Translations under genes and position numbers: made by a program
Notes under the pieces: generated by a model
Told to the model about the DNA's origin: nothing
Database searches by the model: none
The model's input: the letters and a program-made list of their open reading frames with translations, nothing else
Shown: piece by piece, positions 41,370-62,908 of the stretch
How positions within the stretch are numbered: position 1 is the stretch's first letter
How the letters are laid out: each line of letters starts with the position of its first letter
IMG/VR virus record: IMGVR_UViG_3300021400_000239
Coordinates: 232-64,231 of that record
Source of the DNA: a virus
Taxonomy: Duplodnaviria > Caudoviricetes
Direction: 5' to 3' (one strand)
DNA: 64,000 nucleotides

Positions 41370-42129
41370 AATTTACTCCTTTTCTGTGGTTCAGTATGCG
41401 GCAGTCCACCCTGCACAATTTTTATTTCTTGTCCTCTTGGAACATCTTTATTATAACAGAAATTCGGGAAAAAGTCAAATATTTAATTCTCAATTTCTAG
41501 CACAGGGAACCATTCATAATAGCGGCCATCTTCGTCATTCGCTTCGGCATAGTAGCAAAATTCTTCTGCCTTTTCCAGCGTATGACATACGCCGTAGAAT
41601 ATGTCTTCGTATCCTTCTTTGCGCCCAACAATCAAATATAACATTTTTCCAGCTCCTTTCCTTTTTACAATTATATTATACCAGAATTTTTGTAAAAGTC
41701 AAATGTTTGACTCTTCCAGCTTACCGGAGCCTCTGTGCGAGGCTCCGACGAAGTTCCAGCTTGCGGAGGATTCCAGCTTTCCAGCTCGCGAGCCGAATGT
41801 CGCAGCTTGCCGGGAGCCAAAAATCGGTGGAGCCGATTTTTTCCAGCTTGGGTAGGAATGGTAGTTTCAGCTTCCAGCTTATTTTCAGCTTTTCCAGCTT
41901 ATTTCTCAGCTTGTAGCTTCTAGATACTAGCTTATCCATAGCTTGCCCTTCCCTTCCTCTTTACATATATATTATACCATAATTTTGATAAAAAGCAAAT
42001 ACTTGTATATCTAATAGTTAGTTATAACTAACTACTTGACAGGGCGGAAATTTAGATGTATAACATCTAAAAATTTGAATTGACATTCTTATTATTTAGT
42101 AGTATACTTACCTTGTTCTCAGGAAGGAG

Positions 42130-42653
42130 ATGACTATAATGAAGCGAATTGCTAAGAAGCGAATTGTACTGTATTGCCCTTGGGAAGATGAAGAAATTAT
42201 TGGCACGGAAGAGTATGATAGTTCCATACCAGACGAAGATATTCTTAATGCTTTACATGAACAGGGGAAGACTATGTGGCTTCCGACTTATCCAGACTAT
42301 GATGAACTTTGGCTTATGCTACCAGACAATGGTATAATGTTGCCACATTATAAATTTGGGGTGGATGAATTCTATGTTCAGATACCGACATTTTGGGATA
42401 GGATAAAAGATGCGCTGTTTGGACGGAAGGAGAGGTAAAAATGTTTAAAATTGGCGATAAAGTGATGATTGATAATGAGGAGCGCTTAGTTGGTTATATT
42501 GTAAGTATAACCATTGACCCGTTGGAAGAATATAGTGTAAAGACAGAAACTGAGTTCAACTTTATTACTTATGTGGTTCGTGTCTTCAAGCCGTTTTATG
42601 TTAATGGATATTCGGACTTCTATCGTATGAGTGATGACTTGACAAGGGTTTAA
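42130..42653 (+). CDS. Inverted unit 1: two hypothetical genes (42130-42438, 42441-42653)
   Basis: Promoter TTGACA (42080)..TATACT, RBSs, hairpin AAGGGCGAAAGCCCTT; flanked by palindromes 42052 and 42677. Confidence 0.7.
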
Positions 42654-42723
42654 GGGCGAAAGCCCTTAAATTATTTTTAGATGTATAACATCTAAAATAA
42701 AATAAGGCGGTTGCCCGCCTATT

Positions 42724-43092
42724 TTAATTATATAACTGACTGATAGCATTGCGCCATGCGATTTCCAACATCTCATATGGGTCTGCCCATTCTACTCGCC
42801 CAGTATAATGATTAAGTTTTGTGATATCAATTGCGTTATATTCTTTTAAGTCCGCTTCATATGCGGCGAGAATATTACGCACATGCTCACGACTTTCTTG
42901 TGCCTTTTTAAGTTCAACATCTTTTACGGGGCCATCTGGTAGCATGTTGGCGCAACCTTCATACTTAATAACCTGGGCGCATTTAGCAATAAGTTCGTTT
43001 CTATGCGCGCTGAGGTCAATGGTCAAACGCCTGTATTCGGTATCCTGAAAACTCCACCAAGTATCTTTTGTCTGTTCTTTCTTAAACAACAT
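42724..43092 (-). CDS. Hypothetical unit gene
   Basis: Own promoter, RBS and terminator between palindromes 42677 and 43169. Confidence 0.65.
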   Translation of the reverse strand: MLFKKEQTKDTWWSFQDTEYRRLTIDLSAHRNELIAKCAQVIKYEGCANMLPDGPVKDVELKKAQESREHVRNILAAYEADLKEYNAIDITKLNHYTGRVEWADPYEMLEIAWRNAISQLYN

Positions 43093-43272
43093 TTATTTTT
43101 CCTTCTTTCTATTGTTCTTGGGAACAATGCTATTATAGCATATTATAGGAAAATTACAAGAAGAAGATTTAGATGTTTTACATCTAAATATTCCTGTTGA
43201 CTTCTTAATTAAATGGAGTATAATATAGCCATGAACTGAAGGAAAACAGTTAAAACCAGAAAGGGAAAGAAA

Positions 43273-43755
43273 ATGACGAAGTATCTGATTATGAGATGTG
43301 AAGAACTGATGGACCAGTATGAGTGCGACGCTAATCGTGAACCGATGTTTCTGGTGGATGATTGGACGAAATGGTATCAGGAAAATCATCCGAATTATCA
43401 GTTTGAAGTGTATAAGTTTGAAGACGATAAAGAATGTACTTTGGAAAAGACTTATGAAGAGTCTATGGATTATGGAATGGCATTATACTTCTGGAATATG
43501 GATGATAGCCATGAAGAAGTAGCGCCGACCGTAATTGCGCATTATAAGGGTTATAATCGCGATAAGAAAGTGCCTAATAAAGTGTGGAACGTTTTTCGAC
43601 AGGGTGCTTACTGGGCAGACGGTGATGAATTTACTGAAAAGGACTTTAAGAATGACTTGAGAAGTTGCGGATATGTTGCTTGGGATGATAAGGAGCATAA
43701 GAAATTTTGGGTATATGGGTATTATGCGGACGGGCGTTATTGCTTGGGGTATTAA
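43273..43755 (+). CDS. Inverted unit 2: hypothetical protein
   Basis: TTGACT (43197)..TATAAT promoter, conserved leader, terminator AAGGAGCAAATGCTCCTT plus T-run. Confidence 0.7.
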   Translation: MTKYLIMRCEELMDQYECDANREPMFLVDDWTKWYQENHPNYQFEVYKFEDDKECTLEKTYEESMDYGMALYFWNMDDSHEEVAPTVIAHYKGYNRDKKVPNKVWNVFRQGAYWADGDEFTEKDFKNDLRSCGYVAWDDKEHKKFWVYGYYADGRYCLGY

Positions 43756-43821
43756 GGAGCAAATGCTCCTTTTTCTTTTTTTTAATTTTAGATGTTTTAC
43801 ATCTAAAATAAAAAGGATGGC

Positions 43822-44937
43822 TTAAAACCATCCATAGAGGAGAGAAAGAAAATAAATATTAAGAACTACGCTTGACAGATGCATCAGAACATCATTGATG
43901 TGCCGATGCTGTGAAAGGTCTTTACATACGCCGAAAAGCGCGATTGCGAGTCCGAACCATGAGACTTGAAGGCCGAAGAGCATAATCAGAACCACATTGA
44001 GAATAGTAATTCCGCACCGAACATCATTCCATTCAAAGCGGTAAGCTGTTTCAATTCCGAACCAATTCTTAATCGTTTCCATTTCCATTCTCCACTTTAT
44101 TCTTATTCTTCAAACATACTAATCTGTTCTCCACCGAAGCGCCTGAGTACGATTTCTCTTACCTGTCTCTGGGCATCTTCGTTCCAACTATAATAGTTTT
44201 CATCATCAAGACCCTTGACATATTCATCAATGGCATCATCCACGACTTGCGTGATAGTTGCTTTTCTTTCTTTCATCAGACGCTCACAACTAGCATAAAT
44301 GTCGTCCATATCAATATTCGCACAATGCCAACTTTCCCATTCAACTTCAATCCAATTCATTTTTCGTTCTCCTTTCATAAGATGGCAACTTTTTCCGTAT
44401 CAGGGAAAGTTGCCGAAACCTGCCCATCTCCTTCCTTGGGATTACGGGAATTCAATGGGAGTCCGTCAGTTCTCACCTTCCTAAGTCCATCCCAGTTCCT
44501 TGGAACAATTACATTATACTACGATTTTGGAAAATGTCAAGTATTTCTTTTTTATCTTTTTCTGTGAGTGTATCATACAATTCCCTTGCCGATGGAGTGA
44601 GATAGTCGTAATGAACTAGGCCCAAAGCGCATAGACAACACAATTCTTTTTCTTCGGAATTAATTGGAAACAATAACATTTTTCAAACCCCACACTTTTC
44701 AATTATTTCTTGCGGTTCAAGGTCTGTGTGCGCGAGCCAACTAAGCGCGCACATGATTGTATCCACATCAGTAATTTTTCCTTCTTGAATACGATAGACA
44801 AGCATACGGTTGACTTCTTCAATTCTTTCGGCTTCTTTTTTAAGACTGTTAGCTTTATCTGTCATTCCCTGAAGAAGCTGAAATGCCAAGGTAGAGCAGT
44901 CGCAGATATCCATAGATTCAAACTTCATTTCACTCAA
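43822..44937 (-). CDS. Unit genes: membrane protein 43822-44088, hypotheticals 44103-44378 and 44683-44937
   Basis: ORFs with RBSs and sigmaA-type promoters at about 44514-44540 and 44958-44986. Confidence 0.6.
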
Positions 44938-45262
44938 CTCCTTTCGTTGATGTGCTTATTATAGCATAAGGGAAAGGAACTGTCAAGAAAATATATTTAG
45001 ATGTTATACATCTAATTATCCGATAAAGGAAAAGCCACCCGTCGATGGCTAAAGGCGCCGAGTGGAACGTTGCGCACCGCCCACTCTACTGGACTTTTCC
45101 TCACTTGTTTATCAGCCAGAAGGGAAAAAGTTTGAAAAGCTGAATCTGTCTGGAAAGGGGCTTTAAGGATAAACCCCTTAGGACCTCTCATGGTTCTTGG
45201 CTATACGGAGCGCTTACGCATCAATTAAGGCGAGTCAGTTTTCGCCACCAAGAAGGGAAGGC

Positions 45263-45589
45263 TTACGCCTTGCGGTAGGTATTCGGCTTGCCCTCAATCT
45301 TGACGATTTCGTCCTGCCAGAGGTGGGTCAGAGCATACTGAACCTTGCCCTTAGTGATGCCCTCAGGAAGGTCATCGGCGATGGCTTCGTAGATTTCGCT
45401 ACAAGTCGCAGGAGAATCGGAGAGGTTGCTGATCAGAAGGTCGTGGAAGGACTCATAAGCTTCAAGGTTTTTCGCCTTGGTATCGGCACCACGGTTGATT
45501 TCTTTGGTCAGTTCATCGAGAACTTCAGTGTTCTCATAACCGATGTTGATAAGAGCAGTACGGATGGTTTCAAGAGTGGACTTCTTCAT
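45263..45589 (-). CDS. Winged-helix protein, paralog of 46037-46360
   Basis: MKKSTL...EL..E..RG...GK..Y.LT..W.DE..KI.GK.NTYR shared between the two. Confidence 0.7.
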   Translation of the reverse strand: MKKSTLETIRTALINIGYENTEVLDELTKEINRGADTKAKNLEAYESFHDLLISNLSDSPATCSEIYEAIADDLPEGITKGKVQYALTHLWQDEIVKIEGKPNTYRKA

Positions 45590-46036
45590 AATTTAATTTC
45601 CTTTCTGGTTTGTTAGGGTTTTCCTTCCCTTGATTTCGTATTCATTATAACATAGGTTTGGAAGTTTGTCAAGAGGTTGCCGAAAATTTTCTCCCTTTTA
45701 TTTTCGGTCATCGGCGAAGAGTCTTGCGTTTCCATGGAGATTTGTTTCCGCTCTCTTGCTCCCTCTGACAGTTATCATTGTACCAGATTTTCGGAAGTTT
45801 GTCAAGCATTTTTTTTAGAGAATTTCTTGAGAGGCTTTCCTCAAGAAATAATAGCGTAGATGGCTAAATCACTATGTACAACTCGTGTATGGTGGGCGCT
45901 CACCACTTAGCCATTTCCTTTCAGGAGGCAACCCTGCCCCTCCTGACAGTTATTATTATACTCAATTCTGAAAAAAAGTCAACAATTTATTTTTAGATGT
46001 ATAACATCTAAAATATTTAATAAGGAAAAAGGGAGA

Positions 46037-46360
46037 TTACTCTCCCTTAATCCGGTAGGTGTTGGTCTTGCCGACAATCTTCTCAACTTCATCTGCCCAG
46101 TAGTTGGTCAGACCGTAGACAATCTTACCACGGGCGAACCCGGTTTCATCTGCGATTTCCTGCGCGGAAACAGGGAGAGAAGCGGACTTCAGAACTTCCA
46201 TGACCGCATCGTGCATCTCTGCGTAAACCTTGCGGTTGGCATCGGCCTTTTCCTTGCCCCGTTCAAGTTCGGCGGTCAGTTCGGAGAGAATGTCCATCAT
46301 GTAATCATCATTCTTTTCGGTGAGGTAGGAGACGAGAGACTGGAGAGTGGACTTCTTCAT
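46037..46360 (-). CDS. Winged-helix protein, paralog of 45263-45589
   Basis: Start MKKSTLQSL at 46360 after the AAACCAGAAAGG leader; 'VSAQEIADETGFARGKI' HTH. Confidence 0.7.
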   Translation of the reverse strand: MKKSTLQSLVSYLTEKNDDYMMDILSELTAELERGKEKADANRKVYAEMHDAVMEVLKSASLPVSAQEIADETGFARGKIVYGLTNYWADEVEKIVGKTNTYRIKGE

Positions 46361-46617
46361 AATAATTACCTTTCTGGTTTGTTGAGGTTTTCCTTCCTCT
46401 GTTGTGAGTTTATTATAGCATAGTTTGTAGTGGCTGTCAAGTACTTTTTTCTGAGGGACGGCGCGCAAGTCGTGGGTGAAGCCGGCACTTGCCACTGTGT
46501 TCCATCGCCTTCCGTCCCTCGGAACAATTGTATTATATGCTAATTTAGGATTTTTGTCAACTACTTATTATTAGATGTATAACATCTAAAAATATTTTAG
46601 AATAAAAAAGTATCTCG

Positions 46618-47604
46618 TCAAGCGAGATACTGAGCAAGTTCGGCGATGGTATTTTCAAGTCGTGTTGTATACTTAGAAGGCTCTTTATTCTGAAGATAGT
46701 TCTGCATTGCGGCAATAACAATTACAATTTCATTCGCATCGGGACGCTTCTTTCTCAGAACGAACTCATCTGTCGTGCCGAGTTCACGGAAGGGGAAGAA
46801 GATAATTCCATTAGAGATTGCCGCCTTTTTAGCAATCTTGCTAAGAATGTATGTTTCAATGATAGCATCATCAAGAGCAGTGTGTGCTTCATCAAAATCA
46901 TACTTGTCGGTCAGATAACGATAAGACGCTTCTGCGCTTGTCTTGAAGAATGTTCCGCTTGCGGTGAGCATATCATTCTGAAGGCACTGCTTCTTGTAGG
47001 TAGCATTGTTCAGAAGATGCTTTGCGGCAAGTCCCCAAAGGTCAAACAGAGGGAAGACTTCACCATGGAAACGGAAGATATCTGCTTCAAAATCTTTATC
47101 GGGGTCTTTCTGATAGCGTTCATTTGCGATTTTAGCACACAGATAACGCTGAGACTGTTCCCATTCAAAATAATCAGGGCTATACAGTTTATTGATATAG
47201 AGGTCAGTGAAGGGAATTGCTTTCTTAAAGTCGAACATACTATTGTATGCTCCGACCGCATCAACCGTGCGGAAATCTTCCATCATAATTTCAACAACTT
47301 CGCGCCAAGGCTTGATAACGGTCTTCTTTTCTTCAAGCATCTTCAAATAGATTGGGCGCTTTTCCGCATAATATGCGGTATTGAATACGGCAGGGACAGA
47401 GAAAGTTTCGGCGATAAGAAACTGTTTCTTATCCAGGAGTTCACCCTTGCGATTTGTGATAGTCCATCCAATATCATAGATGAGCGGACGGGCGATAGCA
47501 ATCTTCTTTTTCTTTTCCGGGTCATGGTTGGCGACTTCATCGGCGAACGGGAGGGTAGCGGACTCACAGTCAAGGGTAGCATAACGATTTTCTCTACGGG
47601 CCAT
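46618..47604 (-). CDS. DEDDh 3'-5' exonuclease-family protein
   Basis: LDCES, YDIGW, AYNSMFD, FDLWG, EAHTALDD motifs. Confidence 0.85.
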   Translation of the reverse strand: MARRENRYATLDCESATLPFADEVANHDPEKKKKIAIARPLIYDIGWTITNRKGELLDKKQFLIAETFSVPAVFNTAYYAEKRPIYLKMLEEKKTVIKPWREVVEIMMEDFRTVDAVGAYNSMFDFKKAIPFTDLYINKLYSPDYFEWEQSQRYLCAKIANERYQKDPDKDFEADIFRFHGEVFPLFDLWGLAAKHLLNNATYKKQCLQNDMLTASGTFFKTSAEASYRYLTDKYDFDEAHTALDDAIIETYILSKIAKKAAISNGIIFFPFRELGTTDEFVLRKKRPDANEIVIVIAAMQNYLQNKEPSKYTTRLENTIAELAQYLA

Positions 47605-48156
47605 ATCTAATCAATTCCTTTCTGGTTTTTAAGTGTTGCCTTCACTTTATGGGTAGATTATACCATCGGTTATGGTTGCTGTCAAGCGGCATTATTAGAT
47701 GTAAAACATCTAAAATAGAAAAATGGGGCAAAGCCCCATTCTTTATTCATCTTCCACTTCGGTAATGCCTTCAACTTCACAATAGCGCGTGAACATATCA
47801 CGGGCGAATTCTTCAATAGCATCAAGGTCAATTTCTTCTCCGAGTTCAACTGCGCTCTGGATTGCGGAAAAAGCAACAATACTCATCATGTGGTCTGCGG
47901 TGTTCATACTAATAGTCATAATAAAGTCCTTTCTGGTTTGAAGTGTTTTCCTTCACTATATCTTAGTCATCAAGCATGTTTTCAACTTTTTGAACAGCGA
48001 GAATTGCTTCATCAATCAAATGCTCACGTTCATCTGTTAATTCGCATTCGTCATCAATGGCTCTGCTAATATGGTTAAGAAAATTATAAACATTTGTAAA
48101 CTGATCAAGTTCATCTTTTGTATAAATCAATATTTTTTTCATATTTATATCCTTTC

Positions 48157-48555
48157 TTACTCCGAGACTTCATTGGGAAGAGGCTGATTCTCTGCCTCTT
48201 CCTTTTCCTTGGCGCGTCTTGCCTTATCCTTGGCAATCTTTTCTGCCTTGGCCTTGGCCTTTTCTGCCTTGGCATCCTGCTTTGCCTGATAGGCATTGAT
48301 TTCACTCTGCATGAGTTCTTCGGCAGTCATGTCCTCACGCTCTTCGGCAACGATAGCCCCAATGCGAACATAACGCTTGTGGCCATTCAAGTCGGTCATA
48401 ATGATACCAAACTGACGGTCATTGACCTTGTCAAAACGAGAAACCTTGTCTGCTGCTGCGTTGGAATCATCAGCATCAAACCAATTGGAGAAAACGAACT
48501 GGAACGCATTCAGACGCAGAGTAGAATCAACAACAGTCTTAGAAATCTGAGCCAT
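48157..48555 (-). CDS. Hypothetical protein with a Lys/Ala-rich tail (resembles the 49897/52832 family)
   Basis: 'DLNGHKRYVRI' vs 'DAEGNERFVVF'; KAEKIAKDKARRAKEKE tail. Confidence 0.6.
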   Translation of the reverse strand: MAQISKTVVDSTLRLNAFQFVFSNWFDADDSNAAADKVSRFDKVNDRQFGIIMTDLNGHKRYVRIGAIVAEEREDMTAEELMQSEINAYQAKQDAKAEKAKAKAEKIAKDKARRAKEKEEAENQPLPNEVSE

Positions 48556-48724
48556 AATTTTTTCCTTTCTGGTTTGGGTTGTTTTCCTTCAACTTTCAAT
48601 GATATTATAATTCATTTTAGGAAAATGTCAAGCATTAACTTTTAGATGTTTAACATCTAAAATATAAGTTGACATTTCTTTTGAAATGGTATATACTATC
48701 GGTGTTGAAAGGAAGGTGCCAATT

Positions 48725-49225
48725 ATGAGAAATAGCTATGAAATCCGTGCTGAAAAGTTCATCCATCAGATTTTTGATTATATTGTGAATTGTATTAATG
48801 AAGAACAGTTTGAGGAAGCTGTTGCTTGGTTTAATTTTACCCATCATCGTAATGTGCGTTTTGCTCATGGTCTTACTCGTGTATGCTTTATCACTTCTGA
48901 CTATGTTGTGAAGTACGATTTTGGAACTTATCGTGATGCCCGTGAGTTTGGCACTTGTAATGATGAAGTCCGTATGTATGCTATTGCCGAAAGGGACGGC
49001 TTCGCGCATCTGCTTGCTAAGCCTACAATGGTTGAGTATATGGGACATTCATTCTGTATTATGCCCCGTATTTATGGGATTGGTAAGTATGATGAAGATG
49101 TGGGTTGGTTTCTTGAAGGCGCAGAATATGATTGGGTTAATGAACATATTTATGATTGCCATAATCAGAATTATGGTTGGAAAAATCATCATCCTGTTAT
49201 CTTTGACTACGCCTGTTGCTCGTAA
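48725..49225 (+). CDS. Inverted unit 3: minimal protein-kinase-like (PKL/APH) fold protein
   Basis: G.TR...DYVVK, E..MY, DCHNQNYG, VIFDY motifs; promoter TTGACA at 48669. Confidence 0.65.
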   Translation: MRNSYEIRAEKFIHQIFDYIVNCINEEQFEEAVAWFNFTHHRNVRFAHGLTRVCFITSDYVVKYDFGTYRDAREFGTCNDEVRMYAIAERDGFAHLLAKPTMVEYMGHSFCIMPRIYGIGKYDEDVGWFLEGAEYDWVNEHIYDCHNQNYGWKNHHPVIFDYACCS

Positions 49226-49288
49226 GAGCAACCTTTTATTATTAGATGTATAACATCTAAAATAGAAAGGTAATGGGAATAAATCCCA

Positions 49289-49785
49289 TTATCTCATATC
49301 AACAACCATGAAGTCATCATTTTCCCAAATCTGACCGTAGTTCTTATCTACAAAATCAAACTTTTCTTCTTTTGCTTCGGTAAGCAAGGCCGCCATGCGG
49401 TTCTGGAGTTCTTCCTTCTTTGCTTTGCGGGCGCAAATAGCGCGAAGTTCGGCGATGATATCACGAAGTTCCTGTGTGGTCATGATGTCGGTATCAATAA
49501 TAACTTTTCCAATTCTCATTTTTATACTTCCTTTCATTAATCAATGGGGCGGTTCAATTCTACTTCTTCAATGTAATAAACGCAAGGTGCTATATAATCA
49601 TTACCTAATGTCTCGTATTCATAGCCATCAAAAGTAAATTCAAACTTTTTCATTTCCTCTTCGGTGTAATCCTCTGCTACACGCTCAAGAATTGCTTTCT
49701 GTGCTTCGGCGAGAGAAGAATAAACTCCGTCGCCCCAATGCTCATAAGGTTCAATAATGAATTCTTTTACTGTAAATACCGTCAT
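49289..49785 (-). CDS. Two unit genes (49289-49519, paralog of 54671-54925; 49537-49785)
   Basis: 'IDTDIMTTQELRDIIAELRAICARK' vs 'FDTDDLSIEELDQIITGLRKIRARK'. Confidence 0.6.
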
Positions 49786-49896
49786 CTCTCACATCTCCTT
49801 TCGACATGATGAATTATAGCATAAGATGAAAAAGAAGTCAAAGCAATTATTTAGATGTTAAACATCTAAATAATATTTCGGGATTAAATCCCGAAA

Positions 49897-50187
49897 TTAT
49901 TTTTCTTTCTTTTTCTTTGCCATCTTTTCTTCAAATTCTTCCTTATACAGTTCTGCGTTGGCATATCCATCATAAGGAATATATCCACCTTCGCCATTAC
50001 GAGTACCGCGAGGAGTAGAAACTTTAATAACGATCCATTTCTCGTTTCCTTCTGCGTCTACGCAAGGAATAGCAAGTTCATTAGCACTTACGGGAAGTAC
50101 ATCAGTGTCATACTGCTTGGACAGAAGTTCCTGAATAGAATTGAGATATTCAGAGCGCAGAAGAGCTTCAAGCTGAGTTTTATTCAT
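49897..50187 (-). CDS. Hypothetical protein, paralog of 52832-53197
   Basis: Shared 'NELA.PCVDAEGNE....KVS.PRGTRNG.G..PYD.YA.AE.Y'. Confidence 0.75.
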   Translation of the reverse strand: MNKTQLEALLRSEYLNSIQELLSKQYDTDVLPVSANELAIPCVDAEGNEKWIVIKVSTPRGTRNGEGGYIPYDGYANAELYKEEFEEKMAKKKKEK

Positions 50188-50480
50188 TTACTTTCATCCT
50201 TTCATTAATCGTTAAGGAACATGTAAGAAAATATAAGAAGCATAAAGCCAACTATCACAAGGAGAAGAAACGCAGGAATAAATACTCCCCAGATAAGTCC
50301 CCAAAGCATCAGAATTCCGGCAAGGGCATCTGCTATGTTCATACCGCCATCTCCTTCCTTTTGACAAATATATTATAACATAATTTTGAAAAAAGTCAAT
50401 TATTAAATTAGATGTTTAACATCTAAAAATTCTATTGCTTTTTTCTTGGAAAGTGATATAATACGCATGAGGTGATAAAT

Positions 50481-50954
50481 ATGAAGCGGTTGACAGTGAT
50501 TAGGCGGTTCGTTTCAGAAGTGGCATGTGAGAAAGTCGGATTGACAGATGATGTTGAATACTGTGCTATGGCGACATTTTCGGGAAGAAAGCACTATAAA
50601 AAGCCGACTATCGGAGTGCCAAAAGATAATTTGATTTGTGAATTACAAGATGAAACCACTAAGATTTTTCGTAGAAATTTTACAAGTAGATATTCTGGCG
50701 CAAAAGGCTTTGCCAATATCACTTTGGTGCTATTACATGAAGTTGGGCATTTGAAAACAAGCGAAGAGTTCTGGGGAAATGAAGAAGCAGAAATGCTTGA
50801 CATGATGATGCGAAGCGCAGTAGAGACACAAGAAGAGTATATGAAAATTCCGTCTGAATATGGCGCAACCGAGTGGGCTATTGGGTGGCTACAAGATGCG
50901 AACAATCGTTCACTCGCAAAACAGTTTGAACGGCAGTTCTTCAATGCGGAGTAA
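50481..50954 (+). CDS. Inverted unit 4: HEXXH zinc-metallopeptidase-like protein
   Basis: LLHEVGH...SEYGATEWA; promoter, GAGGTG RBS, hairpin AATGCGGA/TCCGCATT. Confidence 0.65.
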   Translation: MKRLTVIRRFVSEVACEKVGLTDDVEYCAMATFSGRKHYKKPTIGVPKDNLICELQDETTKIFRRNFTSRYSGAKGFANITLVLLHEVGHLKTSEEFWGNEEAEMLDMMMRSAVETQEEYMKIPSEYGATEWAIGWLQDANNRSLAKQFERQFFNAE

Positions 50955-51027
50955 ATCCGCATTCTTTTACTTTTAGATGTTTTACATCTAAAATTAAATA
51001 AAAGAAAAAAAGGGGATATATCCCCTT

Positions 51028-51792
51028 TTATTCTTCTTCAACTCCAGTGAAGTTGATAACATCTTTGCGAGTAATCTTTTTCAGATACGTGCCCTTAAAC
51101 ACAACTTCTTTATCAAACTTAATCGTGAAGGGCTTGGGCGCGACCCGTTCCAAAATGCGCTTTACTTCATAATCAGTATTCCACTTTGCGCCGAGAGTAT
51201 CAATACAATAAATCAGAATAGCGGTTTCAATGTCTACATCATACAGACCCATATGCGCTTCTTCAAAAGTATCATCTTCGGCAATATACCTATAAACAAC
51301 TTCTGCGCTTCCTTTGTAGTTGCCTGTATCAGTAAAGTAATTATTAATCTCGCAATAGTGCTGATATTGTGGAGTATTTGTAATGTATTGCGAAGCATAG
51401 CCCCAAATATCATGGATAGCGATAGTATCAAAAGGATTAATACACTTGAACCAGTCGCAATTAAAGGAGATAACTTTGTCATCAAAATTGGAGTTGTAGG
51501 CATACGCATCAGTGATACCATACTTCTGAATATCACGGTGAATCTCACGCATTACATAGCCCCACTTGTCCATCGTGGCCTTGTGCTGGCGCATAAGCTG
51601 AACATACTGAGGACGCTTCTGGGCATAGTATGCTGATTCAAACAGCGGAAGGTTGTGCCAAATCTGCTCAATGACAAAGTGCTTGCGCTCAACCGTCATG
51701 TGCTGACAGGTGTCATACACGCAGTATCCGATATCATAGCAAAAGGGCTTGTCCAGACCAGTAGTTTCCGTGTCCATAATCATTACATTCAT
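51028..51792 (-). CDS. DEDDh 3'-5' exonuclease-family protein, paralog of 46618-47604
   Basis: MDTETTG, YDIGY, AYNSNFD, HDIWG, EAHMGLYD. Confidence 0.85.
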   Translation of the reverse strand: MNVMIMDTETTGLDKPFCYDIGYCVYDTCQHMTVERKHFVIEQIWHNLPLFESAYYAQKRPQYVQLMRQHKATMDKWGYVMREIHRDIQKYGITDAYAYNSNFDDKVISFNCDWFKCINPFDTIAIHDIWGYASQYITNTPQYQHYCEINNYFTDTGNYKGSAEVVYRYIAEDDTFEEAHMGLYDVDIETAILIYCIDTLGAKWNTDYEVKRILERVAPKPFTIKFDKEVVFKGTYLKKITRKDVINFTGVEEE

Positions 51793-51928
51793 ATAAGTAC
51801 CTTTCTGGTTTGATTTGTGGTATCCTTCCACTTCATTGTGTTCCGAGGAACAAGTGTATTATAGCATGTTCTGGGAAAAATACAAGAAGAATATTTAGAT
51901 GTTATACATCTAAGAAATAAAAATGGAA

Positions 51929-52378
51929 TTACTCCGCATGGAGTAATTCCGCCAGAACTGACAGAATGTCAGAAGGTTCATATGCTTCGCCAGTCCAGTC
52001 GTTTCTGATTTCTTCATTATCATCAAACAGAATGTCATTTTCTGTTTTCAGGAAACTTTGCTTTGGCGTGCCATAGTCTACAATTTCCATGATATCAAAT
52101 GAAACTGAAGCCAGATGCTGATGAAGCCAGTCCATTTTTGCGCTTGCTACTGCTTCATTGTATTCAGCGTTTCCATCCTTAGAAGTCCAGCTGATGATAC
52201 CGATGCCGTAGCCATGACTTTGGAGCTTATTCAGATACCGAGCAAGCAGACTCATGTTCAGCATAACGGCCGCTTCTTCGTAGGGCGTGGGGTCAAAAGC
52301 ACGCAGACGGGGAAGCCAATTCTCTACCGAATACAGGTCGGCGATTGTTCCATCCATATCAAACCAAATCATTCTCAT
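51929..52378 (-). CDS. HAD-family phosphatase (5'(3')-deoxyribonucleotidase-like)
   Basis: FDMDGT motif I, IIS, K, LFDD motif IV. Confidence 0.8.
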   Translation of the reverse strand: MRMIWFDMDGTIADLYSVENWLPRLRAFDPTPYEEAAVMLNMSLLARYLNKLQSHGYGIGIISWTSKDGNAEYNEAVASAKMDWLHQHLASVSFDIMEIVDYGTPKQSFLKTENDILFDDNEEIRNDWTGEAYEPSDILSVLAELLHAE

Positions 52379-52506
52379 TTTCTTTCTCTCTCTTTCTGTT
52401 CCCTTGGAACGAGTATATAATAGCATAATTTTGGGAAAAGGTCAAGTAATAAAATTTAGATGTTTAACATCTAAAAATCATAATCAAATGCGGCAAGGCC
52501 GCATCT

Positions 52507-52701
52507 TTACCTATCTACAAGAATCTTGATAATTGCCACAATAAGAGCAATCAGCAGAACAACGCTCCATGTAATCCACAACGGCGCGAGAACCCAAATC
52601 CAACTCCAATTGATAACGCCGCAAAGTTTAAGCACGATGAAAGCAATAGTGAGCAGTCCGAAGAAACCAATTCCATTGTTCTTAATTGTCGTGTTTTCCA
52701 T
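52507..52701 (-). CDS. Small two-TM membrane protein
   Basis: GIGFFGLLTIAFIVLKLCGVINWSWIWVLAPLW. Confidence 0.7.
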   Translation of the reverse strand: MENTTIKNNGIGFFGLLTIAFIVLKLCGVINWSWIWVLAPLWITWSVVLLIALIVAIIKILVDR

Positions 52702-52831
52702 TTTAATTCCTTTCTGGTTTTATGGAGTATCCTTCTCCTTTCAACACCGATATCATATCATAGTTTTAGGAATTGTGCAAGTATATATTTTAGATGTTAT
52801 ACATCTAAGAATTAAGAAGAAATGAAACCGC

Positions 52832-53197
52832 TTACGCGGTTTCCTTTTCCTTTTCCTTTTCCTTTTCGGCGCGCTTCTGCTTATCGCGCTCAATCTTCTC
52901 CTGCTTCTTCTTTTCGGCGGCGGCCTTCTTTTCCTTCTTCTCCTCTACTTCCAGTGCGTATGCTTCAGCTGCGGCATACGCATCATACGGGTCATAGCCG
53001 TTGCCGTTGCGAGTGCCACGAGGGATAGAAACCTTAAAGACCACAAAGCGCTCATTGCCCTCAGCGTCCACGCAGGGAACGGCCAGCTCGTTGGAGCTTA
53101 CAGCGAGAGCATCAGCATCGCAAGCATTGGACAGGGCATTAGACAGGATAGTAAGATACTGTTCACGCAGAGCATTCTCAAGTTCGGTTTTAGTCAT
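52832..53197 (-). CDS. Hypothetical protein, paralog of 49897-50187
   Basis: Same shared motif as 49897-50187; Lys/Glu tail. Confidence 0.75.
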   Translation of the reverse strand: MTKTELENALREQYLTILSNALSNACDADALAVSSNELAVPCVDAEGNERFVVFKVSIPRGTRNGNGYDPYDAYAAAEAYALEVEEKKEKKAAAEKKKQEKIERDKQKRAEKEKEKEKETA

Positions 53198-53336
53198 AAT
53201 TTTACCTTTCTGGTTTGTGAGGTGTCCTTCCTCTTTACAGTTAGTATTATACTCTGATTCGGGATAAAGTCAAGTATTAGTTTTTAGATGTTTTACATCT
53301 AAAAATTAAAATAAAATAAGTCGGATGCTATCCGAC

Positions 53337-56300
53337 TTATCGTTCCAAAATATCATAAATCTTCAAAATCTGCTCAACAGTAGGAATATCCTTGTCTCTA
53401 CAAGTAATAGTGAAACGGATGGTATCAGAAGAGATACTAGGCTTGAAATCTTCAACGCTACATCCAACGCGATCGACAACGGTATTCATAATATACCGTC
53501 CAATCTGGTTGCGAGGAACATAATAGCTACGAGTAATCATCTTTCAATCCTCCAATTCAAATTTTGATAATTCGTTGGCAATAATTTGATTTGCCCAAAT
53601 TAGTCTTTTATAAAAACTAAAATCATCGGGAGCATCGGCGAGTAATTCTATTAAAGCTTTGTGGAGTTCTGCTTTTTCTTTACGCTGTTCTTGCGTCATT
53701 ATTCCCAATCCTTTCCCTTATACTTCGGTTTCTTAAAACGCTTGTCTGGAATAACTTTAGTCGCGGGATTTACATTGCCCCAAGTTTTACGCTCGCTCTG
53801 GAATACTTCCACCCAAGTTTTGGTTTTCTTGGTCTTTTTCATTTTCAACCGCTCCTTCTTATCAATCAAGTGGCGCTTCAATCCAACTGTATTCGCCCCA
53901 TTCGCCATAGTCAAGAATCCATTCAATGTAATCTTCCCATGCCTGTTCCCGTTCATCTTCCGCATATTCGCGGTCTTCTGTCCAGTAGAGAAAGTCTCGT
54001 TCTTCAGAATAATAATGGTCGTTCATATACTTATGGCACTGCTGACGAATGGGTTCAATAGAGGTATAAACATGGTAGGGTTCACCCTGATAGGACAGAA
54101 CATATACAACTTTACTCATACTCAATTGCTCCTTTCCTTATTGACAAGATAATTATAACATAATTTAAGTAAAAGTCAAATATTTATTTAGATGTATAAC
54201 ATCTAAAAAAATATAAAGTTGGCGCATATGCCAACTTTAACAGTCATCAGTATAGCAGCCTGCATACGGGTCAAATCCCATTTCAATATCGTATTCCGGT
54301 TCTTCATATCCAAAGTGTCCCTTAGCCCATTCAATTTCTTCTTCTGAGAAATCTTCTTTCTCATCACTGGGCGCATCAGCTTGTTCCCATTCTTCCCAGC
54401 TTGTCCATACACTAAGCCAGTCCTCACAGTCCTCGCAAGGGTCATCAACATGGCATACGCAATTCTTGTCGCAGTAGGGGCAATCCCAACCGTTCACGGG
54501 GCAATAGGTGAGTTCACCGTTATAAGTTCCGGCCTTACTATCTCTCATTTTAGTCCCTCCTCTGTTCCTCTTGGAACTGTGATAATGATATCATACTTTG
54601 ATAGAAAAAGCAAGAGAGTATTTTAGATGTACTACATCTAAAATGGAAGAAGCTGGGAAACCCAGCTTGCTTACTGAACCATGATTTCCATCAGCGTACC
54701 GTCGTAGTTTTCCAGCCCATAAACGCCCAGATGCAGCTCGCGTGCTTCCGCCAGCAGCTCGTTGAACTGGTTATTCAGCTCCTGCGCACGATGCTTGCGC
54801 GCACGAATCTTACGCAGACCAGTAATAATCTGGTCAAGCTCTTCAATGGAGAGGTCGTCGGTATCAAAAGACACAACAGCGGACACGGGGTTAACGATTT
54901 CACTCAGTTTCTTTTCGGGTTTCATAATCTTACTTCCTTTCGTGAGGTGATGGTTATATTATACTCAGATTTTAATTTTTGTCAAACATTTATTTTAGAT
55001 GTAATACATCTAAAAATTATACACGGGATATTATCCCGTGGAGTTTTACTTCCAAATTGTTTTTCCGTTCTCAGTAAACAATGACTGATTGCGGTCAACG
55101 CGCTTGCGCAGATAGGGCGGAATTTTCTTTGTTCCATTGTATACAGCTACCAGCTCACGGAAGGTAGTTACATACATTGTAATAACTTTCAGCTTGTCCT
55201 CTGTTTTTACCAGCGTAATACCAGTGTCGGTGATACACAGATACACGCCGTTCTGATACTTTTCGCGCACAACCTGCCCCAAGCCAATATCATTGATGAT
55301 ATGCTGTACTCGGTTCGCTCTCTGTACTTCACAGTGATAAGTCATTGTTGTCATGGTTCATACCTCCTTTTGATGTTGTAAGTATATCATAAAATGGGAA
55401 AATTGTAAAGAGTAATTTTTAGATGTTTTACATCTAAAAACTATAATGAAATAAGCGCCAAGGCGCTTATTTTACATGATTTCATCAAAAGCTGCTTCAA
55501 GCCAATCATCATTTACCATGCTTGCAAAATCGGATACCAGCTTGCGCAGAATAGTTCCAGCCTGCTCTTCATCCATCTTGGTCAAATCCAACCCAGTATG
55601 CTTTTTCAGCTGTCGCATCAGGAGCTTAAGCATATCGCAGTAAGTGTATTCCTTCTCGTCCTCGTCAAAGTAAACAGTCGCATTGAGTTCCATATTTTAG
55701 TCCTTTCTGGTTTGGGAGGTTGTCCGTCCTCTTTACAATTAGTATTATATTCATTTTAGGAAAAAAGTCAAGTAATATTTTTTAGATGTATAACATCTAA
55801 AATTATAATGAAATAAAGGGATTTCTCCCTTTATTTATTAATCCAAATATCCATGGAGTTCTACATATGAAATTCTATTATTAATAGGATTAATAGTGCG
55901 CTGTGCTTTCCGCCCCAGCCTTTCTTCCAGCTTGGCGAGTTCTTCTTCAGCTTCCTTTACGGACACAGTGTTAGCAAGTTCCAGCTTGCAGTCCTCTACG
56001 CATACGTAGATAGTAGCGCAAGAGATAGAAGGCTTGTCTTCGAAATAGGTAATCATTACACTCATATAAGTATTATACTTCATTGCCGTTTCTCCTTTCG
56101 TGTCCCTCTTAGGAACAACTATATTATACTCCAATTTGAAAAAAAGTCAAATGTTATTTTTAGATGTATTACATCTAAAAAATATAAAAGGGGAAAATTC
56201 CCCTTTTATCATTCAATTTCACCAGTATAAATATTATACTTGACATTATCATTATAAATCTTTTTTGCCAACTGGTAAGTCATGCCGCGCTCGCGCATGA

Positions 56301-58794
56301 ACCAACCGATGTGTTTGATGGTTGTCATGCTGTACAGTCCATTGACGATCATCCAGCCTTCCGGGTCAATCTCAATAACGGTAGTGGTGTAGCTTACCAG
56401 TTGAACAGTACCGTCCTCAAATGTCCGAACGTAGGTGCTTGCATACTTGTGACCATTGTTAAGCGATACAGTGTAATTCATGTTTCAATCCTTCTTTCTT
56501 TTATTTCGTTCCCTTTGGAACATCTATAGTATACTGCCATTCGGGAAAAATGTCAACAGTAGTTTTTAGATGTATTACATCTAAAATTAAAACGAAATAA
56601 TAGGTCCCGTTTCGGGACCTATGGAATTATTCATAATACTCAACGATGTCCCAACCGCCGGACCAAATTCCGCCAAAGTGTGCGTTGTCCTCTACCCATG
56701 CCGCCGCGGCACTGATGGTTTTGAACCCATCTTCAATAATGATGTTCCATTCGATGCTTACAATACGATAGCGCTTCTTCATTGTTTTTTACTTCCTTTC
56801 TTTTTGTGTTCCCTTGGAACAACTATATAATACACCATTTTGGGATTTGTGTCAACTTTTATTTTTAGATGTAATACATCTAAAATTAAAATGAAATACA
56901 ACGGGTTATGTGCCCGTTGTTTTTGGTTGTGGGAAAAGCCGCTGACGCAAATTGATTGTATCTTTAAGTTCGTTTAATTTTGAAATTGCGGTTTTATGCG
57001 AAGAATAATCGATATCAATGCGATTATGGATATAGGTTCCTGGAACTAAATAAATTACTAAAGTAGAATTATAATATTCCTTTTTTGAATTGAAATTATC
57101 AACCACTTTGGCGAAAGTTATACTATTTTCGCTAAACATCATTTCTTCAAAGATAATCATAATATATCCCCTTTCGGGACGGCGGATTATTCCGCCGTCA
57201 AATTCGTCTTAGTGTAATAGAGATTGAAATTGCCGTATTCTACGGAACAAGGGTCAGTGATATCATCATAACCATTTTCTTCGGCATCGGTATAGAGTTC
57301 GGTTTCGAGAATGATGTATCCGTTTTCTTTGTGCATCCAGTAATAGTTTTTCATTTTGTAATTCCTTCCTTTCTTGTCCCTTCGGACAAGTGTATTATAC
57401 TACTTTTAGGGAAAAATGCAAGTTTCATTTTTAGATGTTTTACATCTAAAAATGAAAATGAAATTGAAATAAAAATATAAAGGTTGAAATTGTCAACCTT
57501 TATATATTAATATTTAATGTTGATTATCATATCGCATCAGAATTACATTAGAATAATGTGTTAAATATGTTATACCTTCAATGGTAACCTGCACGACATC
57601 TGATTCATCAAAGTCGCGCCAATTGTCAATTTTACCTTCAATCATTTCACCGTTATGCAAGATAATGATTGCTTCGTCAAAGCTTTGCTTAAAGTCAAGA
57701 CCAATTTGACGATTCCCAAGAGAGCAACCTGTCATCATTAGAACAGTGATTAGCAGTAGAGCAATAAGAATAACTTTTTTCATAATGATTACTTCCTTTC
57801 TGTCCTTTGGACAAATATATTATAACATTTTTTAAAAATATTACAATGCCTCTTTTTAGATGTTTTACATCTAAAACTATAAGAAGGGAAACCGGTGTAT
57901 TGCTTAGCAATACACCAATTCCATCGTAGACCATTTGAGAATACTAATCTGTTTATATTCGCGCCCAATACGAAGCGCTTCTTTCTTTGTGCTAACACGG
58001 AAACTATGGTCAATATAATAAATACCTTCACTATACCAGATGCCGCAGCTTCCCTCGTACAGCTTTACAGCTTGCATAGCAGCTTCCGGTGTAGCAGCTT
58101 CCATGCCATAGTCGGCTACCTGGTAGCCGCTCTTATATGACACAATACGTCCGTTCTTCAGTGTAAGCCCATCGTTGTTGCCCAGTTTCCGCATAGTCCG
58201 AATGTTAATCATGGTTTGAACCTCCGTTCCTTTGATGTGTATAGTATACTACACTATGGCAGAAAAAGCAAGAGAGAAAATTAGATGTATTACATCTAAA
58301 AAAAGAGAAGGGGAATTTTCCCCGTCTATCATGCAAGCCAATAACTAATATGTGTATGTCGCGGCAGCAGCTTGCCTTCATAAGTAAGGCGCGTAAGGCG
58401 TTTAGCAGCTCGCCTACGGCTAAAGCCAGCTCGCAGCAGCTTGACGCTAAAAGCATCCTCAAGGCATACACCAGTCCAGACTTCTTCGCCGCGGAGCAGC
58501 GCAGAGACAGCAGCAGAACGTGATACTTTTGTCATTATTATAACCTTCTTTCGTTTTCTTGTTCCTTGGAACATAGATATAATAGCATACTTAAAGCGAA
58601 AAGTCAATATAGATTATTAGATGTCTTACATCTAAAAAATTATACTGCCATTTAGATATGGCAGTATAATTATTATTATACAATTTCAAGTGTATTTATA
58701 TACACTTCTCCCGCTTCCTGCATATTCCATACTGCGATCATCTTATTGACAATAATATAAATATTCTTCTTTACCATTGCATACAATTTCATCA
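53337..58794 (-). CDS. Series of small unit genes (53337-53540, 53862-54125, 54237-54548, 54671-54925, 55046-55354, 55472-55693, 55838-56083, 56209-56481, ~56627-56782, 56906-57160, 57514-57783 lipoprotein-like, 57904-58212, 58329-58535, ~58670-58794)
   Basis: Mostly one gene per palindrome-bounded unit, with sigmaA-type promoter, RBS and hairpin; 57514 has an MMTGC lipobox-like signal. Confidence 0.65.
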
Positions 58795-58992
58795 TTATTA
58801 TTTCCTTCTTTCTGTTAGTTGTGTTCAACAAGAACACCTATATTATACGCTTTTTCTTTAGTATGTCAAGGCAAATTATTAGATGTAGCACATCTAATAT
58901 TTACAGTATATATATTTTTATAATTATTATAATAAATAAAATACTTTATTATGTTTATAAAAATATATGTATATAATTATAACATATATAAA

Positions 58993-59505
58993 AGAAGGGC
59001 TTGCGCCCTTCTCTTATTTTGTCGGATAGCGGAGCTGTCCCGCTCCATACTTTTCATACAGTGTACAGGCTCGTTCAGCTCGCGCCTGTGTCTCTGTAAT
59101 CAATACCGCGCTTGCTTTCAGCCCGTCATGCTTCCATACGACGAACTTTTTCATGGTCATTTCATAAGTGTATTCAAACATTTGCTTTAGCTCCTTTCTT
59201 TATCATAGGGAAGGGCTTGCGCCCTTCCCATTACATCCATGTTGTGTATTCTGTCCAGTCGAAACCATTGGTTCCAAAGCTTACAGCTTTTTCTCTGACC
59301 ATGATACAGAACAGCTTTCCGTTGGGGCTTTCCGCATCATAGTCCCGTCCGCACTGATTCACGAACCAAGCAGGGCTTTCAATAATGCGCTTTACAAGTT
59401 CCGCGCTAACTTCCATCGTGTGTGTGTTCTCGCAATTGTGAATATAATACTTCATTGTTCTTTTCCCCTTTCCTTTTCGTTGGGAAGGGGCTTGCGCCCC
59501 TTCCC
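58993..59505 (-). terminator. Three related GCAA-loop hairpins GAAGGGC-GCAA-GCCCTTC after short genes
   Basis: Copies at about 58994, 59209 and 59482; a similar one at about 40853. Confidence 0.65.
59231..59455 (-). CDS. Hypothetical protein
   Basis: 74-aa ORF with RBS between two GCAA hairpins. Confidence 0.6.
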   Translation of the reverse strand: MKYYIHNCENTHTMEVSAELVKRIIESPAWFVNQCGRDYDAESPNGKLFCIMVREKAVSFGTNGFDWTEYTTWM

Positions 59506-60062: not shown

Positions 60063-60408
60063 GATTGTGTCCCCCTTATAATAGTTATAGTCTTATCTTC
60101 ACCGCATCGGCCTGCTCATATCATCGCCGGCTGCCCGTCTCGGTATGTCTACATTATACTCTTTCTGTTTTAGATGTCAAGCACTTTTTTGATTTTTTTT
60201 GAAGAAAATTTTTATGCGTTTTTTCCTATATCAGACAAATAATAACAATGATACAAATATAACCATTTAAGACGCTGCCTTTTAACACTTCACCGCGCTA
60301 AAGTGCGGATAATTTTATCACTTTTTATTGATAAATATATAACCATTATCCCGGCATAAAATTGTGTTAGTTATCACTAACTCGGGCGGTTAGTTAGTCA
60401 TAACTAAC

Positions 60409-62907: not shown

Positions 62908-62908
62908 A

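Follow-up and report, generated by a model that had tools for sequence, protein, structure and literature searches.

An invariant 19-bp palindrome bounds the units of a phage gene-cassette array: a candidate operator-like site and crossover point

Positions 42052-58897 of a 64,000-nucleotide stretch of virus record IMGVR_UViG_3300021400_000239 (Duplodnaviria; Caudoviricetes; positions 232 to 64,231 of the record), hereafter the window, hold a gene-cassette array in which 29 transcription units, 25 on the minus and 4 on the plus strand, are bounded by 30 perfect copies of a 19-bp palindrome, TTAGATGT-N3-ACATCTAA, and read in the standard code. With confidence a little above even, we take the palindrome to be an operator-like site for a putative lineage-specific dimeric phage protein, and also a short-homology crossover point. 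The observations behind this reading are the anatomy of the units, the helical phasing of the palindrome to the promoters, the change of both arms between lineages and the breakpoints located at the site. The window covers almost the whole of a viral contig of 64,231 bp, whose completeness is estimated at 36%, and the relatives compared with it are all metagenome assemblies.

The palindrome and its copies

The palindrome consists of two 8-bp arms around a 3-nt core (19 bp, 16 bases invariant), which places the centres of the half-sites 11 bp apart, about one helical turn. A pattern match to TTAGATGTNNNACATCTAA retrieves the 30 copies in the window, and no match appears in 100 dinucleotide-preserving shuffles (chance expectation 0). 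The set is all-or-none, because a tolerance of up to three mismatches brings no extra copy (still 30 in the window, 0.51 expected). The half-site TTAGATGT has 64 matches in the 64-kb window, 60 of which are palindrome arms and 4 others. The cores ATA and TTT occur seven times each, TAT, TTA and ATT three times each and AAT twice, with AAA, TAA, ACT, CTT and AGC as single occurrences. Measured from start to start, neighbouring copies are at least 262 bp (58617 to 58879) and at most 1209 bp (43788 to 44997) apart. An earlier reading of the window from its letters and open reading frames (the first-pass annotation) had reported 30 copies with invariant arms, this list of cores, no full copy elsewhere in the window and intervals of about 0.26-1.2 kb; the pattern match, the shuffles and the recount bear out every one of these statements, and the absence of further copies holds even at three mismatches.

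An exact-pattern scan of viral contigs for relatives with the same palindrome gave 114 stretches, which were joined across tiles into 34 other contigs with arrays of 4-40 copies. Window and relatives make up 38 stretches (753 kb in total) in which 807 copies are perfect, 57 deviate at one base and 29 at two. The genomes sharing the palindrome are distant, some pairs having just 35-45 genes in common, and each near-complete one keeps its palindromes within a single block of about 7-20 kb. Searching 185,579 prokaryote species genomes for exact copies gave single matches in unrelated taxa, apart from a few short contigs bearing 2-6 copies and coding for proteins of this phage group, and the 118 stretches concerned are close to the estimated chance yield of 16 fixed bases in 596 Gb. 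Against 50,697 phage records the array had no megablast match, and scanning the window with Rfam (gathering scores) and ARAGORN found nothing. A literature search, limited and no proof of absence, found no account of the motif or of palindrome-fenced arrays; both half-site strings turn up together in 49 papers, and the 15 among these that were listed concern other subjects (primers, DNA circuits).

Anatomy of the units

Junctions follow one order: a G/C-rich hairpin and its T-run are separated by a few A/T bases from the palindrome, and a gap of 8-10 bp leads on to a TTGACA-16/17-TATAAT promoter whose -10 hexamer is often extended (TG); the gene that follows is preceded by a short leader and a strong ribosome-binding site. 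The palindrome begins about 5 bp past the terminator T-runs and is itself followed by A's, with no T-run. With promoter and terminator classes assigned from consensus scores and fold energies, a sigmaA-like promoter lies 8-10 bp off the palindrome edge at 26 of the 30 window sites, on both sides at 3 of them, giving 29 palindrome-adjacent promoters for 29 units, while terminators close the unit ends.

The four plus-strand units (42070-42677, 43187-43788, 48660-49242 and 50426-50973) account for the departures from this order. Upstream of three of them a divergent promoter pair shares one palindrome (43169, 48642, 50408); the fourth begins at the array edge (42052), where the promoter points rightward only. 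All four are closed by promoter-less palindromes between convergent terminators (42677, 43788, 49242, 50973). The presence of the palindrome at convergent as well as promoter-bearing junctions indicates that it marks every unit boundary and not promoters alone. The 30 copies are as follows (coordinates, core, flanks; no strand is assigned to the palindrome).

42052-42070, ATA, array edge; plus-strand promoter 9 bp right, TTGACA-17-TATACT
42677-42695, ATA; convergent terminators on either side, no promoter
43169-43187, TTT; common to two divergent promoters, 9 bp each
43788-43806, TTT; convergent terminators, no promoter; kept in relatives with about 75%-identical flanks
44997-45015, TAT; minus-strand promoter 10 bp left, 12/12 consensus
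45993-46011, ATA; minus-strand promoter 10 bp left
46571-46589, ATA; minus-strand promoter 10 bp left
47695-47713, AAA; minus-strand promoter 9 bp left
48642-48660, TTA; divergent promoters, 10 bp left and 8 bp right
49242-49260, ATA; convergent terminators; left border of a unit that a 97%-identical relative lacks
49851-49869, TAA; minus-strand promoter 9 bp left; right junction of the missing unit begun at 49242
50408-50426, TTA; divergent promoters, 8 bp on each side
50973-50991, TTT; convergent terminators, no promoter
51895-51913, TAT; weaker minus-strand promoter 9 bp left
52456-52474, TTA; minus-strand promoter 10 bp left
52790-52808, TAT; weak minus-strand promoter 10 bp left
53284-53302, TTT; minus-strand promoter 10 bp left
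54188-54206, ATA; minus-strand promoter 8 bp left
54623-54641, ACT; weak minus-strand promoter 9 bp left
54995-55013, AAT; minus-strand promoter 9 bp left
55419-55437, TTT; minus-strand promoter 9 bp left; borders a unit that a relative lacks
55782-55800, ATA; minus-strand promoter 10 bp left; other junction of the missing unit on the 55419 side
56160-56178, ATT; minus-strand promoter 9 bp left
56566-56584, ATT; minus-strand promoter 9 bp left
56865-56883, AAT; minus-strand promoter 9 bp left
57431-57449, TTT; minus-strand promoter 8 bp left; dyad reaches 16-bp arms with its flanks
57856-57874, TTT; minus-strand promoter 9 bp left
58281-58299, ATT; weak minus-strand promoter 9 bp left; borders unit 58300-58616, which two close relatives lack
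58617-58635, CTT; minus-strand promoter 9 bp left; other border of unit 58300-58616
58879-58897, AGC, array edge; minus-strand promoter 9 bp left

The flanks were classified at 852 sites in the 38 stretches, A/G variants included. At 622 sites the palindrome has a promoter to one side and a terminator to the other, 82 sites have terminators and 21 have promoters on both sides; the offset is 9 bp for 545 of the 700 adjacent promoters scored and 8-10 bp for 660 of them. The 814 intervals between palindromes include 655 clean units read in one direction and just one interval with a promoter at either end, so a convergent junction hardly ever lacks a palindrome. The promoter, leader and terminator layout given in the first-pass annotation stands for most junctions; the four promoter-less sites depart from it, as do at least five strong, near-consensus promoters without a palindrome, with first hexamers at 44540, 45672, 45805 and 46440 (internal or tandem) and at 41702 (just outside the array). 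The sequencing runs compared consist of assembled contigs, from which transcript starts and ends cannot be read. Contigs from RNA libraries fall on many units, and one of 2.6 kb spans three palindromes and units of both strands, which makes DNA carry-over in these libraries possible.

Palindrome types in sister lineages and helical phasing

The universal array exonuclease was used as bait to fetch 80 further loci. Those whose exonuclease is at least about 42% identical carry mostly arrays of other palindromes:

TTAGGTGT-N3, 9 loci
TTAGACGT-N3, 7 loci
GTAGTCTG-N3, 2 loci
TTAGACGA-N3, 1 locus
TTACTGTA-N3, 32 copies, 1 locus
TTATCTGT-N3, 1 locus
TCGTACGT-N3, 1 locus
TTAGATGT arms with a 4-nt core, 34 copies, 1 locus (L324, contig of 169,338 bp)

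At least nine palindrome types are found among related viral contigs, and the terminator-palindrome-promoter layout is identical in all of them. Between lineages both arms always change jointly, and within a genome the copies agree. Two genomes are mixed, G002 with GATGT and GGTGT half-sites and G003 with TTAG and TTGG. The variant carried by one arm in G003 is independent of that carried by the other (6/13/6/13, odds ratio 1.0; 19 of 38 sites mismatched), which argues that complementarity of the arms is not selected and that each half-site is read alone, as by a symmetric dimer. In G002 the association between arms is no stronger than that between neighbouring sites. The idea that units own both of their half-sites, as after import from a lineage with another palindrome, was examined in G002 and G003 and dropped (odds ratio 2.5, p about 0.3).

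The distance from the palindrome edge to the -35 hexamer (offset, in bp) was tabulated in a second sample of sites:

TTAGATGT-N3: 8-10 in 288 of 306; 17 of the other 18 at 17-20, 28-31 or 39-41
TTAGATGT with a 4-nt core (N4): 7-9, 17-19, 28-30, 36-39
TTAGACGA-N3: 20-22, 30-33, 42-44
TTACTGTA-N3: 13-14, 23-25, 33
GTAGTCTG-N3: 7 in 20 of 20

For the outliers of TTAGATGT-N3, an even spread over 11-45 bp would give (11/35)^17, near 3e-9 by our own arithmetic. Steps of about 10-11 bp mean that the site stays on one helix face relative to the promoter. Such phasing is expected if a protein on the palindrome must face RNA polymerase, and unexpected for a mere recombination scar. The spacers of the TTAGACGA lineage resemble phased A-tracts.

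Gain, loss and inversion of cassettes

Proteins were clustered across arrays from gene calls made by a crude longest-ORF (open reading frame) rule, so that some clusters are shadow frames on the opposite strand; gene order is loosely conserved and presence or absence highly variable. Both orientations relative to the array (co-oriented/inverted) occur in cluster 6 (10/6), cluster 18 (4/5) and cluster 8 (9/4), and mixed orientation is also seen in clusters 46, 41, 44, 70, 17 and 29; the mixed clusters include the families of all four plus-strand window units. About 90% of units keep a single orientation.

Closer relatives show what happens at the junctions. Two contigs 96-97% identical to the window lack exactly the units 49261-49846, 55454-55759 and 58304-58599, and each missing unit leaves one palindrome, whose left flank is that of the left neighbour and whose right flank is that of the right neighbour. 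Over all close pairs, 14 of 19 distinct array insertions or deletions have palindrome breakpoints, with an overlap of 23-81 bp; the remaining 5 lie away from palindromes, including those at window 44541, 45783-45935 and 53540-53717. Alignment ends fall within 10 bp of a palindrome in 38% of 314 cases, as against 7.5% of random positions. Base-by-base mapping of 15 palindrome-bounded events placed the switch between parental sequences within the palindrome in 13; the core came from either parent, and one switch lay about 15-18 bp outside, where the flanks resemble each other. The variable switch point, together with a core from either parent, points to crossover in the longest shared identity and not at one fixed bond. 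Joints at palindromes in a DNA run (X3) have sides of just 21-28 letters, a size often derived from repeats. Relatives differ by whole units with junctions at the palindrome, and order and orientation vary among them, as the first-pass annotation had anticipated for cassettes gained, lost or flipped at this site; neither of the findings that it had named as refuting this, an unchanging order and orientation or breakpoints unrelated to the sites, is what the relatives show.

Searches for a recombinase and for a binding protein

Recombinase families were sought in six frames, reading through stop codons, in the window's contig and nine relatives (completeness of 93% or more in 8 of the 10 records), and the control genomes all gave the expected result. 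Tyrosine recombinases (Phage_integrase PF00589) and serine recombinases (Resolvase PF00239) were found in 0 of 10 records, and the Y1 HUH transposase PF01797 (RAYT) in 0 of the 5 genomes searched, extending the earlier remark that no recombinase was recognised in the window. Nuclease-type leads are limited to two: a core gene with weak likeness to RuvC and, in a single array, a T5orf172 gene. The latter encodes a T5orf172 / MUG113 (GIY-YIG-like) protein (E 3e-7) and is the last cassette of the G004 array, at 109091-109705 (L124:9091-9705, minus strand). Its family is present in the four genomes first compared but falls outside those that at least 7 of the 8 near-complete genomes have in common, and no member was seen in the window; as a universal factor the gene was rejected, since its family is not universal.

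The integron- or shufflon-like mechanism that the first-pass annotation had attached to the array is not supported by these results: the 10 records yielded no tyrosine or serine recombinase and the 5 genomes searched no Y1 HUH enzyme, each unit owns its promoter, the crossover is unfixed, and arm complementarity is not under selection in G003. More in line with the data is the alternative it had named, the binding site of a dimeric phage protein, since the two arms change jointly between lineages and the spacing to the -35 hexamer is helically phased.

A phage-encoded binder is favoured because there is no sign of a host regulon and because many specificities exist among related viral contigs. 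The best lead to a candidate binder is the winged-helix family encoded in the arrays, with 2-4 copies in most of them. It occurs in 23 of 26 TTAG(A/G)TGT loci, in 0 of 8 TTAGACG(T/A) loci and in 4 of 41 palindrome-less loci, as searched with a profile made from its TTAGATGT-type members. Its structural model is confident (pLDDT 92.6) and the fold matches are generic (best E 0.1). The family is no more than a lead: it is absent from G008-G010, its recognition helix varies among paralogues that share a palindrome, and distant relatives of it are found in palindrome-less loci. A scan of 30 core small proteins of G004 and G009 detected a DNA-binding domain in none.

Cargo genes

The array genes to which a function or fold could be related are the following.

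46618-47604, minus strand: DEDDh-type exonuclease cassette, copy 1 (phrog_20187; invariant DEDDh motifs)
51028-51831, minus strand: DEDDh-type exonuclease cassette, copy 2 (phrog_20187; invariant DEDDh motifs)
51929-52426, minus strand: HAD-type 5'-3' deoxyribonucleotidase-like cassette (phrog_2643, E 7.8e-12)
45263-45589, minus strand: winged-helix protein of 108 aa, candidate DNA binder; three tandem consensus promoters upstream
46037-46360, minus strand: winged-helix paralogue of 107 aa; two tandem promoters upstream

Copy 2 of the exonuclease represents the sole array gene family present in all 8 near-complete relatives. In Pfam, 27 of 30 proteins of the array and its flanks are without a match and the other 3 fall below the cut-off. 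Of the functions assigned to the cargo in the first-pass annotation, the two exonucleases and the HAD phosphatase (phrog_2643) were upheld and the winged helix at fold level only; the kinase-like, HEXXH and membrane proteins are readings of the sequence alone, for which Pfam and PHROGs returned nothing.

The three tandem promoters before the first winged-helix gene have their first hexamers at 45982, 45805 and 45672, with a similar leader-like start after each, and a close relative shows a 151-bp insertion/deletion near these promoters (45640-45993), away from any palindrome. About 210 nt (45050-45262, minus strand) separate the stop of the same gene from its terminator; this segment, in which no notable ORF and neither an Rfam nor a tRNA match was found, could be a decayed gene or encode a non-coding RNA.

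Two small acidic paralogues with a lysine-rich tail (49897-50187 and 52832-53197, minus strand) belong to the commonest small array family, which has more than 1,120 unnamed homologues in public data and no Pfam domain; the predicted fold is confident (pLDDT 93.3), with no significant PDB match. A link of this family to the palindrome was considered and rejected: it occurs in 38 of 39 palindrome loci, yet 13 of 41 other loci have it as well. At 7555-10173 (minus strand) lies the window's largest standard-code frame, of 872 aa, whose only matches are PHROGs of unknown function (phrog_25468, E 2e-59).

Genome context

The phage from which the window comes is TAG-recoded, and the window covers a fragment of it. 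Outside the array, frames are long only with TAG as a sense codon: coverage by frames of at least 150 aa in the 10-30 kb bins of the window rises from 0.30-0.55 to 0.89-0.98 once TAG is read as sense. TAG-dependent long frames occupy window 1-41000 and 60000-64000, and likewise occur in G001-G006. The array requires no recoding, and G008-G010, with the same palindrome, use the standard code. According to a published model, in the portion of it available to us, recoded phages express their early genes in the code of the host (bioRxiv 10.1101/2021.08.26.457843); a standard-code array within a TAG-recoded remainder fits this model. Among the replication functions encoded by a complete relative are a split DNA polymerase III alpha, type II topoisomerase subunits and an anaerobic ribonucleotide reductase.

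Six contigs of 1.9-4.4 kb (L167, L198, L227, L229, L267 and L204) carry 1-6 palindromes and genes of these phages. Where their title is known, they are binned in metagenome-assembled genomes of Acutalibacteraceae, Oscillospiraceae or Bacillota, a hint to the host group. About half of the words sampled from window 41500-59500 are present in X3, which is a sheep gut metagenome run of another study than the possible source, and at 92% likeness or more all 30 array bins of that interval are covered by it.

Proposed mechanism and alternatives

A predicted dimeric protein, most likely phage-encoded, would read the two 8-bp half-sites and, seated on a fixed helix face upstream of the -35 hexamer, would act on RNA polymerase at about 29 early promoters together. 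Its likeliest action would be the switch-off of early genes or the insulation of neighbouring units, which is thought likelier than activation because the promoters are near-consensus with an extended -10. The palindrome could serve as crossover spot because it is the longest identical stretch recurring at every junction; general short-homology recombination would there delete, insert or invert whole promoter-gene-terminator units, which are invertible because the palindrome equals its own reverse complement. Inversion by exchange between two palindromes would leave copies at the new convergent and divergent junctions; such inversion, or else insertion, best explains the copies at convergent junctions, which are, speculatively, retained because bound protein blocks head-on read-through.

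Several observations weigh against this reading. No palindrome-binding protein was identified among the phage families screened, and the screen turned up no family whose distribution follows the palindrome, being found in every genome that has it and lacking in relatives that do not. HTH_3 proteins were detected in no more than 3 genomes out of 5, and HU and ParB_N in 0 of 5. The winged-helix family is missing from near-complete G008, G009 and G010, which carry the same palindrome, and its match in G006 is marginal. Strong promoters work, or at least exist, without the palindrome, and an operator and nothing else leaves the perfect copies at promoter-less convergent junctions unexplained (4 of 4 in the window, 82 of 852 sites). 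The ratio of 807 perfect to 57 one-mismatch copies is tighter than usual for operators. The phase differs by lineage (7, 9, 13 bp), and phased A-tract spacer modules could in part account for the phasing.

Some of these points would be met by a dedicated site-specific recombination site at which an unrecognised phage recombinase or nuclease shuffles the cassettes, the promoter spacing being an inherited by-product. Exactly one copy stands at each unit boundary, promoter-less convergent junctions included, whole-unit gain and loss have their junctions at the palindrome, cassettes occur in both orientations, and conservation is very tight, like that of enzyme recognition sites; the T5orf172 gene of the G004 array, with its family in the four genomes compared, offers a candidate nuclease. 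Nevertheless we think this quite unlikely. Neither the 10 records searched for tyrosine and serine recombinases nor the 5 searched for Y1 HUH yielded an enzyme, and T5orf172 lies outside the families shared by at least 7 of 8 genomes and was not seen in the window. Moreover, the crossover varies between left arm, right arm and, once, a point about 15-18 bp outside, about 90% of units keep one orientation where a symmetric site would give both, and helical phasing to the -35 hexamer is not expected of a pure recombination site. Enzymatic recombination at the site would, if true, amount to a new cassette system. A new kind of protein that reads the palindrome, organises early transcription and also catalyses or directs cassette exchange is unlikely as well; it would imply a phage-borne gene-cassette platform without a known integrase, in which private sites, of at least nine types, set compatibility groups for swaps of host-takeover genes between co-infecting phages.

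A host protein, either a global regulator or a nucleoid protein, might instead bind the site, with palindrome types mirroring host species. An activator of early promoters must already exist at infection, as host proteins do, the promoters are host-type, and no universal phage-encoded binder was found. We give this no more probability than a dedicated recombination site, for no multi-copy genome appears among the 185,579 species (exact matches only) apart from short phage-like fragments, at least nine palindrome types exist among related viral contigs, and mixed arrays occur inside one genome. A role as nucleic-acid structure, be it a DNA cruciform or hairpin or a read-through RNA hairpin acting as back-up terminator, insulator or enzyme substrate, would suit the perfect dyad with its 3-nt loop, the pairing preserved through both-arm changes, the position about 5 bp past the terminator T-runs and the extension of some copies to 16-bp arms through their flanks (e.g. 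57431). It is highly improbable: a sequence shared within a genome would be needless if structure alone counted, and the terminators share none; the hairpin is weak (-4.6 kcal/mol as DNA) and followed by A's rather than a T-run; the site lies outside the predicted transcripts, between terminators and -35 hexamers; and the arms of G003, mismatched at half of its sites, vary independently. Least probable of all is a functionless repeat homogenised by gene conversion, at once the scar left by cassette shuffling and its substrate. Frequent recombination at the site speaks for it, as do the hybrid sites of mixed arrays, which look like the spreading of a variant, but 16 bases are retained in genomes with about 35-45 common genes and differing genetic codes, and neither promoter phasing nor strict symmetry in at least nine independent types is explained by it.

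If the palindrome is indeed an operator-like site that doubles as crossover point, at least nine orthogonal operator-protein pairs phased to sigmaA-type promoters are predicted, which are potential regulatory parts. A large and widespread uncultured group of ruminant-gut phages packages its accessory early genes as standardised self-contained units. The palindromes give exact borders for hundreds of ORFan cassettes, candidate host-takeover or counter-defence genes, and these borders allow a direct read-out of the units gained, lost and flipped.

Comparison with known systems

Integron cassettes are bounded by attC sites, which are long, imperfect and variable, and are promoter-less, depending on a common promoter. 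The array is similar in having single-gene units at recombination-prone symmetric sites, with whole units gained and lost. It differs in that no integrase was found (10 records), its cassettes own a promoter and a terminator, and its site is a short invariant duplex palindrome at which the crossover is unfixed. From shufflons and invertible DNA of the Rci or Hin type it is set apart by the finding of a tyrosine or serine invertase in 0 of 10 records. REP elements have their copies dispersed through the extragenic space of the whole genome, whereas those of the array lie in one 7-20 kb block, and Y1 HUH was found in 0 of 5 genomes, unlike REP/RAYT systems.

The layout of the sites is closer to that of operators for dimeric regulators, with half-sites about one turn apart and phased to promoters. 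The phi29 protein p4 is a dimeric phage protein that binds upstream of the -35 hexamer on a defined helical face and can repress strong early promoters. Its phase-dependent repression from an upstream site is a precedent for the mechanism proposed here, though p4 acts at few promoters and the array has about 30 identical sites; no homologue of p4 was found, no search aimed at one having been made. In RK2, the available portions of the published accounts describe many copies of the palindromic operator OB per replicon, serving many promoters at varied distances (PMC11790492, PMC13768133, PMC4889941), and KorB as a ParB-family CTPase clamp (PMC11790492). Many copies of one palindromic site on one replicon are common to both systems; ParB_N was found in 0 of 5 phage genomes, and about 30 sites, one per unit, with a role as recombination junction, are features of the array and not of OB as described there. 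The outer bases TTAG...CTAA are shared with an OB oligonucleotide (PMC11790492), a resemblance only.

The PeSL cassettes of T4-type phages, as far as the parts of the reports available to us describe them, are a repeated intergenic combination of a strong host-type early promoter and a stem-loop terminator, concentrated in a hyperplastic region rich in small ORFans, where insertions, deletions and replacements of close relatives have their borders; recombination between modules, by general or short-homology machinery, was proposed to shuffle the genes (PMC2839356, PMC4122927). Measured against these descriptions, the array has the composite of early promoter and stem-loop between small ORFans, and its differences among close relatives are bordered by the modules; recombination in it probably proceeds by general or short-homology machinery, as proposed for PeSLs. 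The similarity among PeSLs is described as a promoter consensus with variable G/C-rich stems and no separate invariant element, whereas the array has a discrete 19-bp palindrome, lineage-specific, phased and also present at promoter-less convergent junctions. Nor are its phages T4-type: their DNA polymerase III alpha is split, and part of them are TAG-recoded. The PeSL idea of regulatory modules as recombination joints is thereby extended from T4-type phages of Gram-negative hosts to distant, partly TAG-recoded ones, with the addition of a discrete element that PeSLs lack. By the features compared here, the array does not match an integron, a shufflon or a REP/RAYT system; it works like a PeSL region in the shuffling of its genes and like a global-operator regulon in the layout of its sites.

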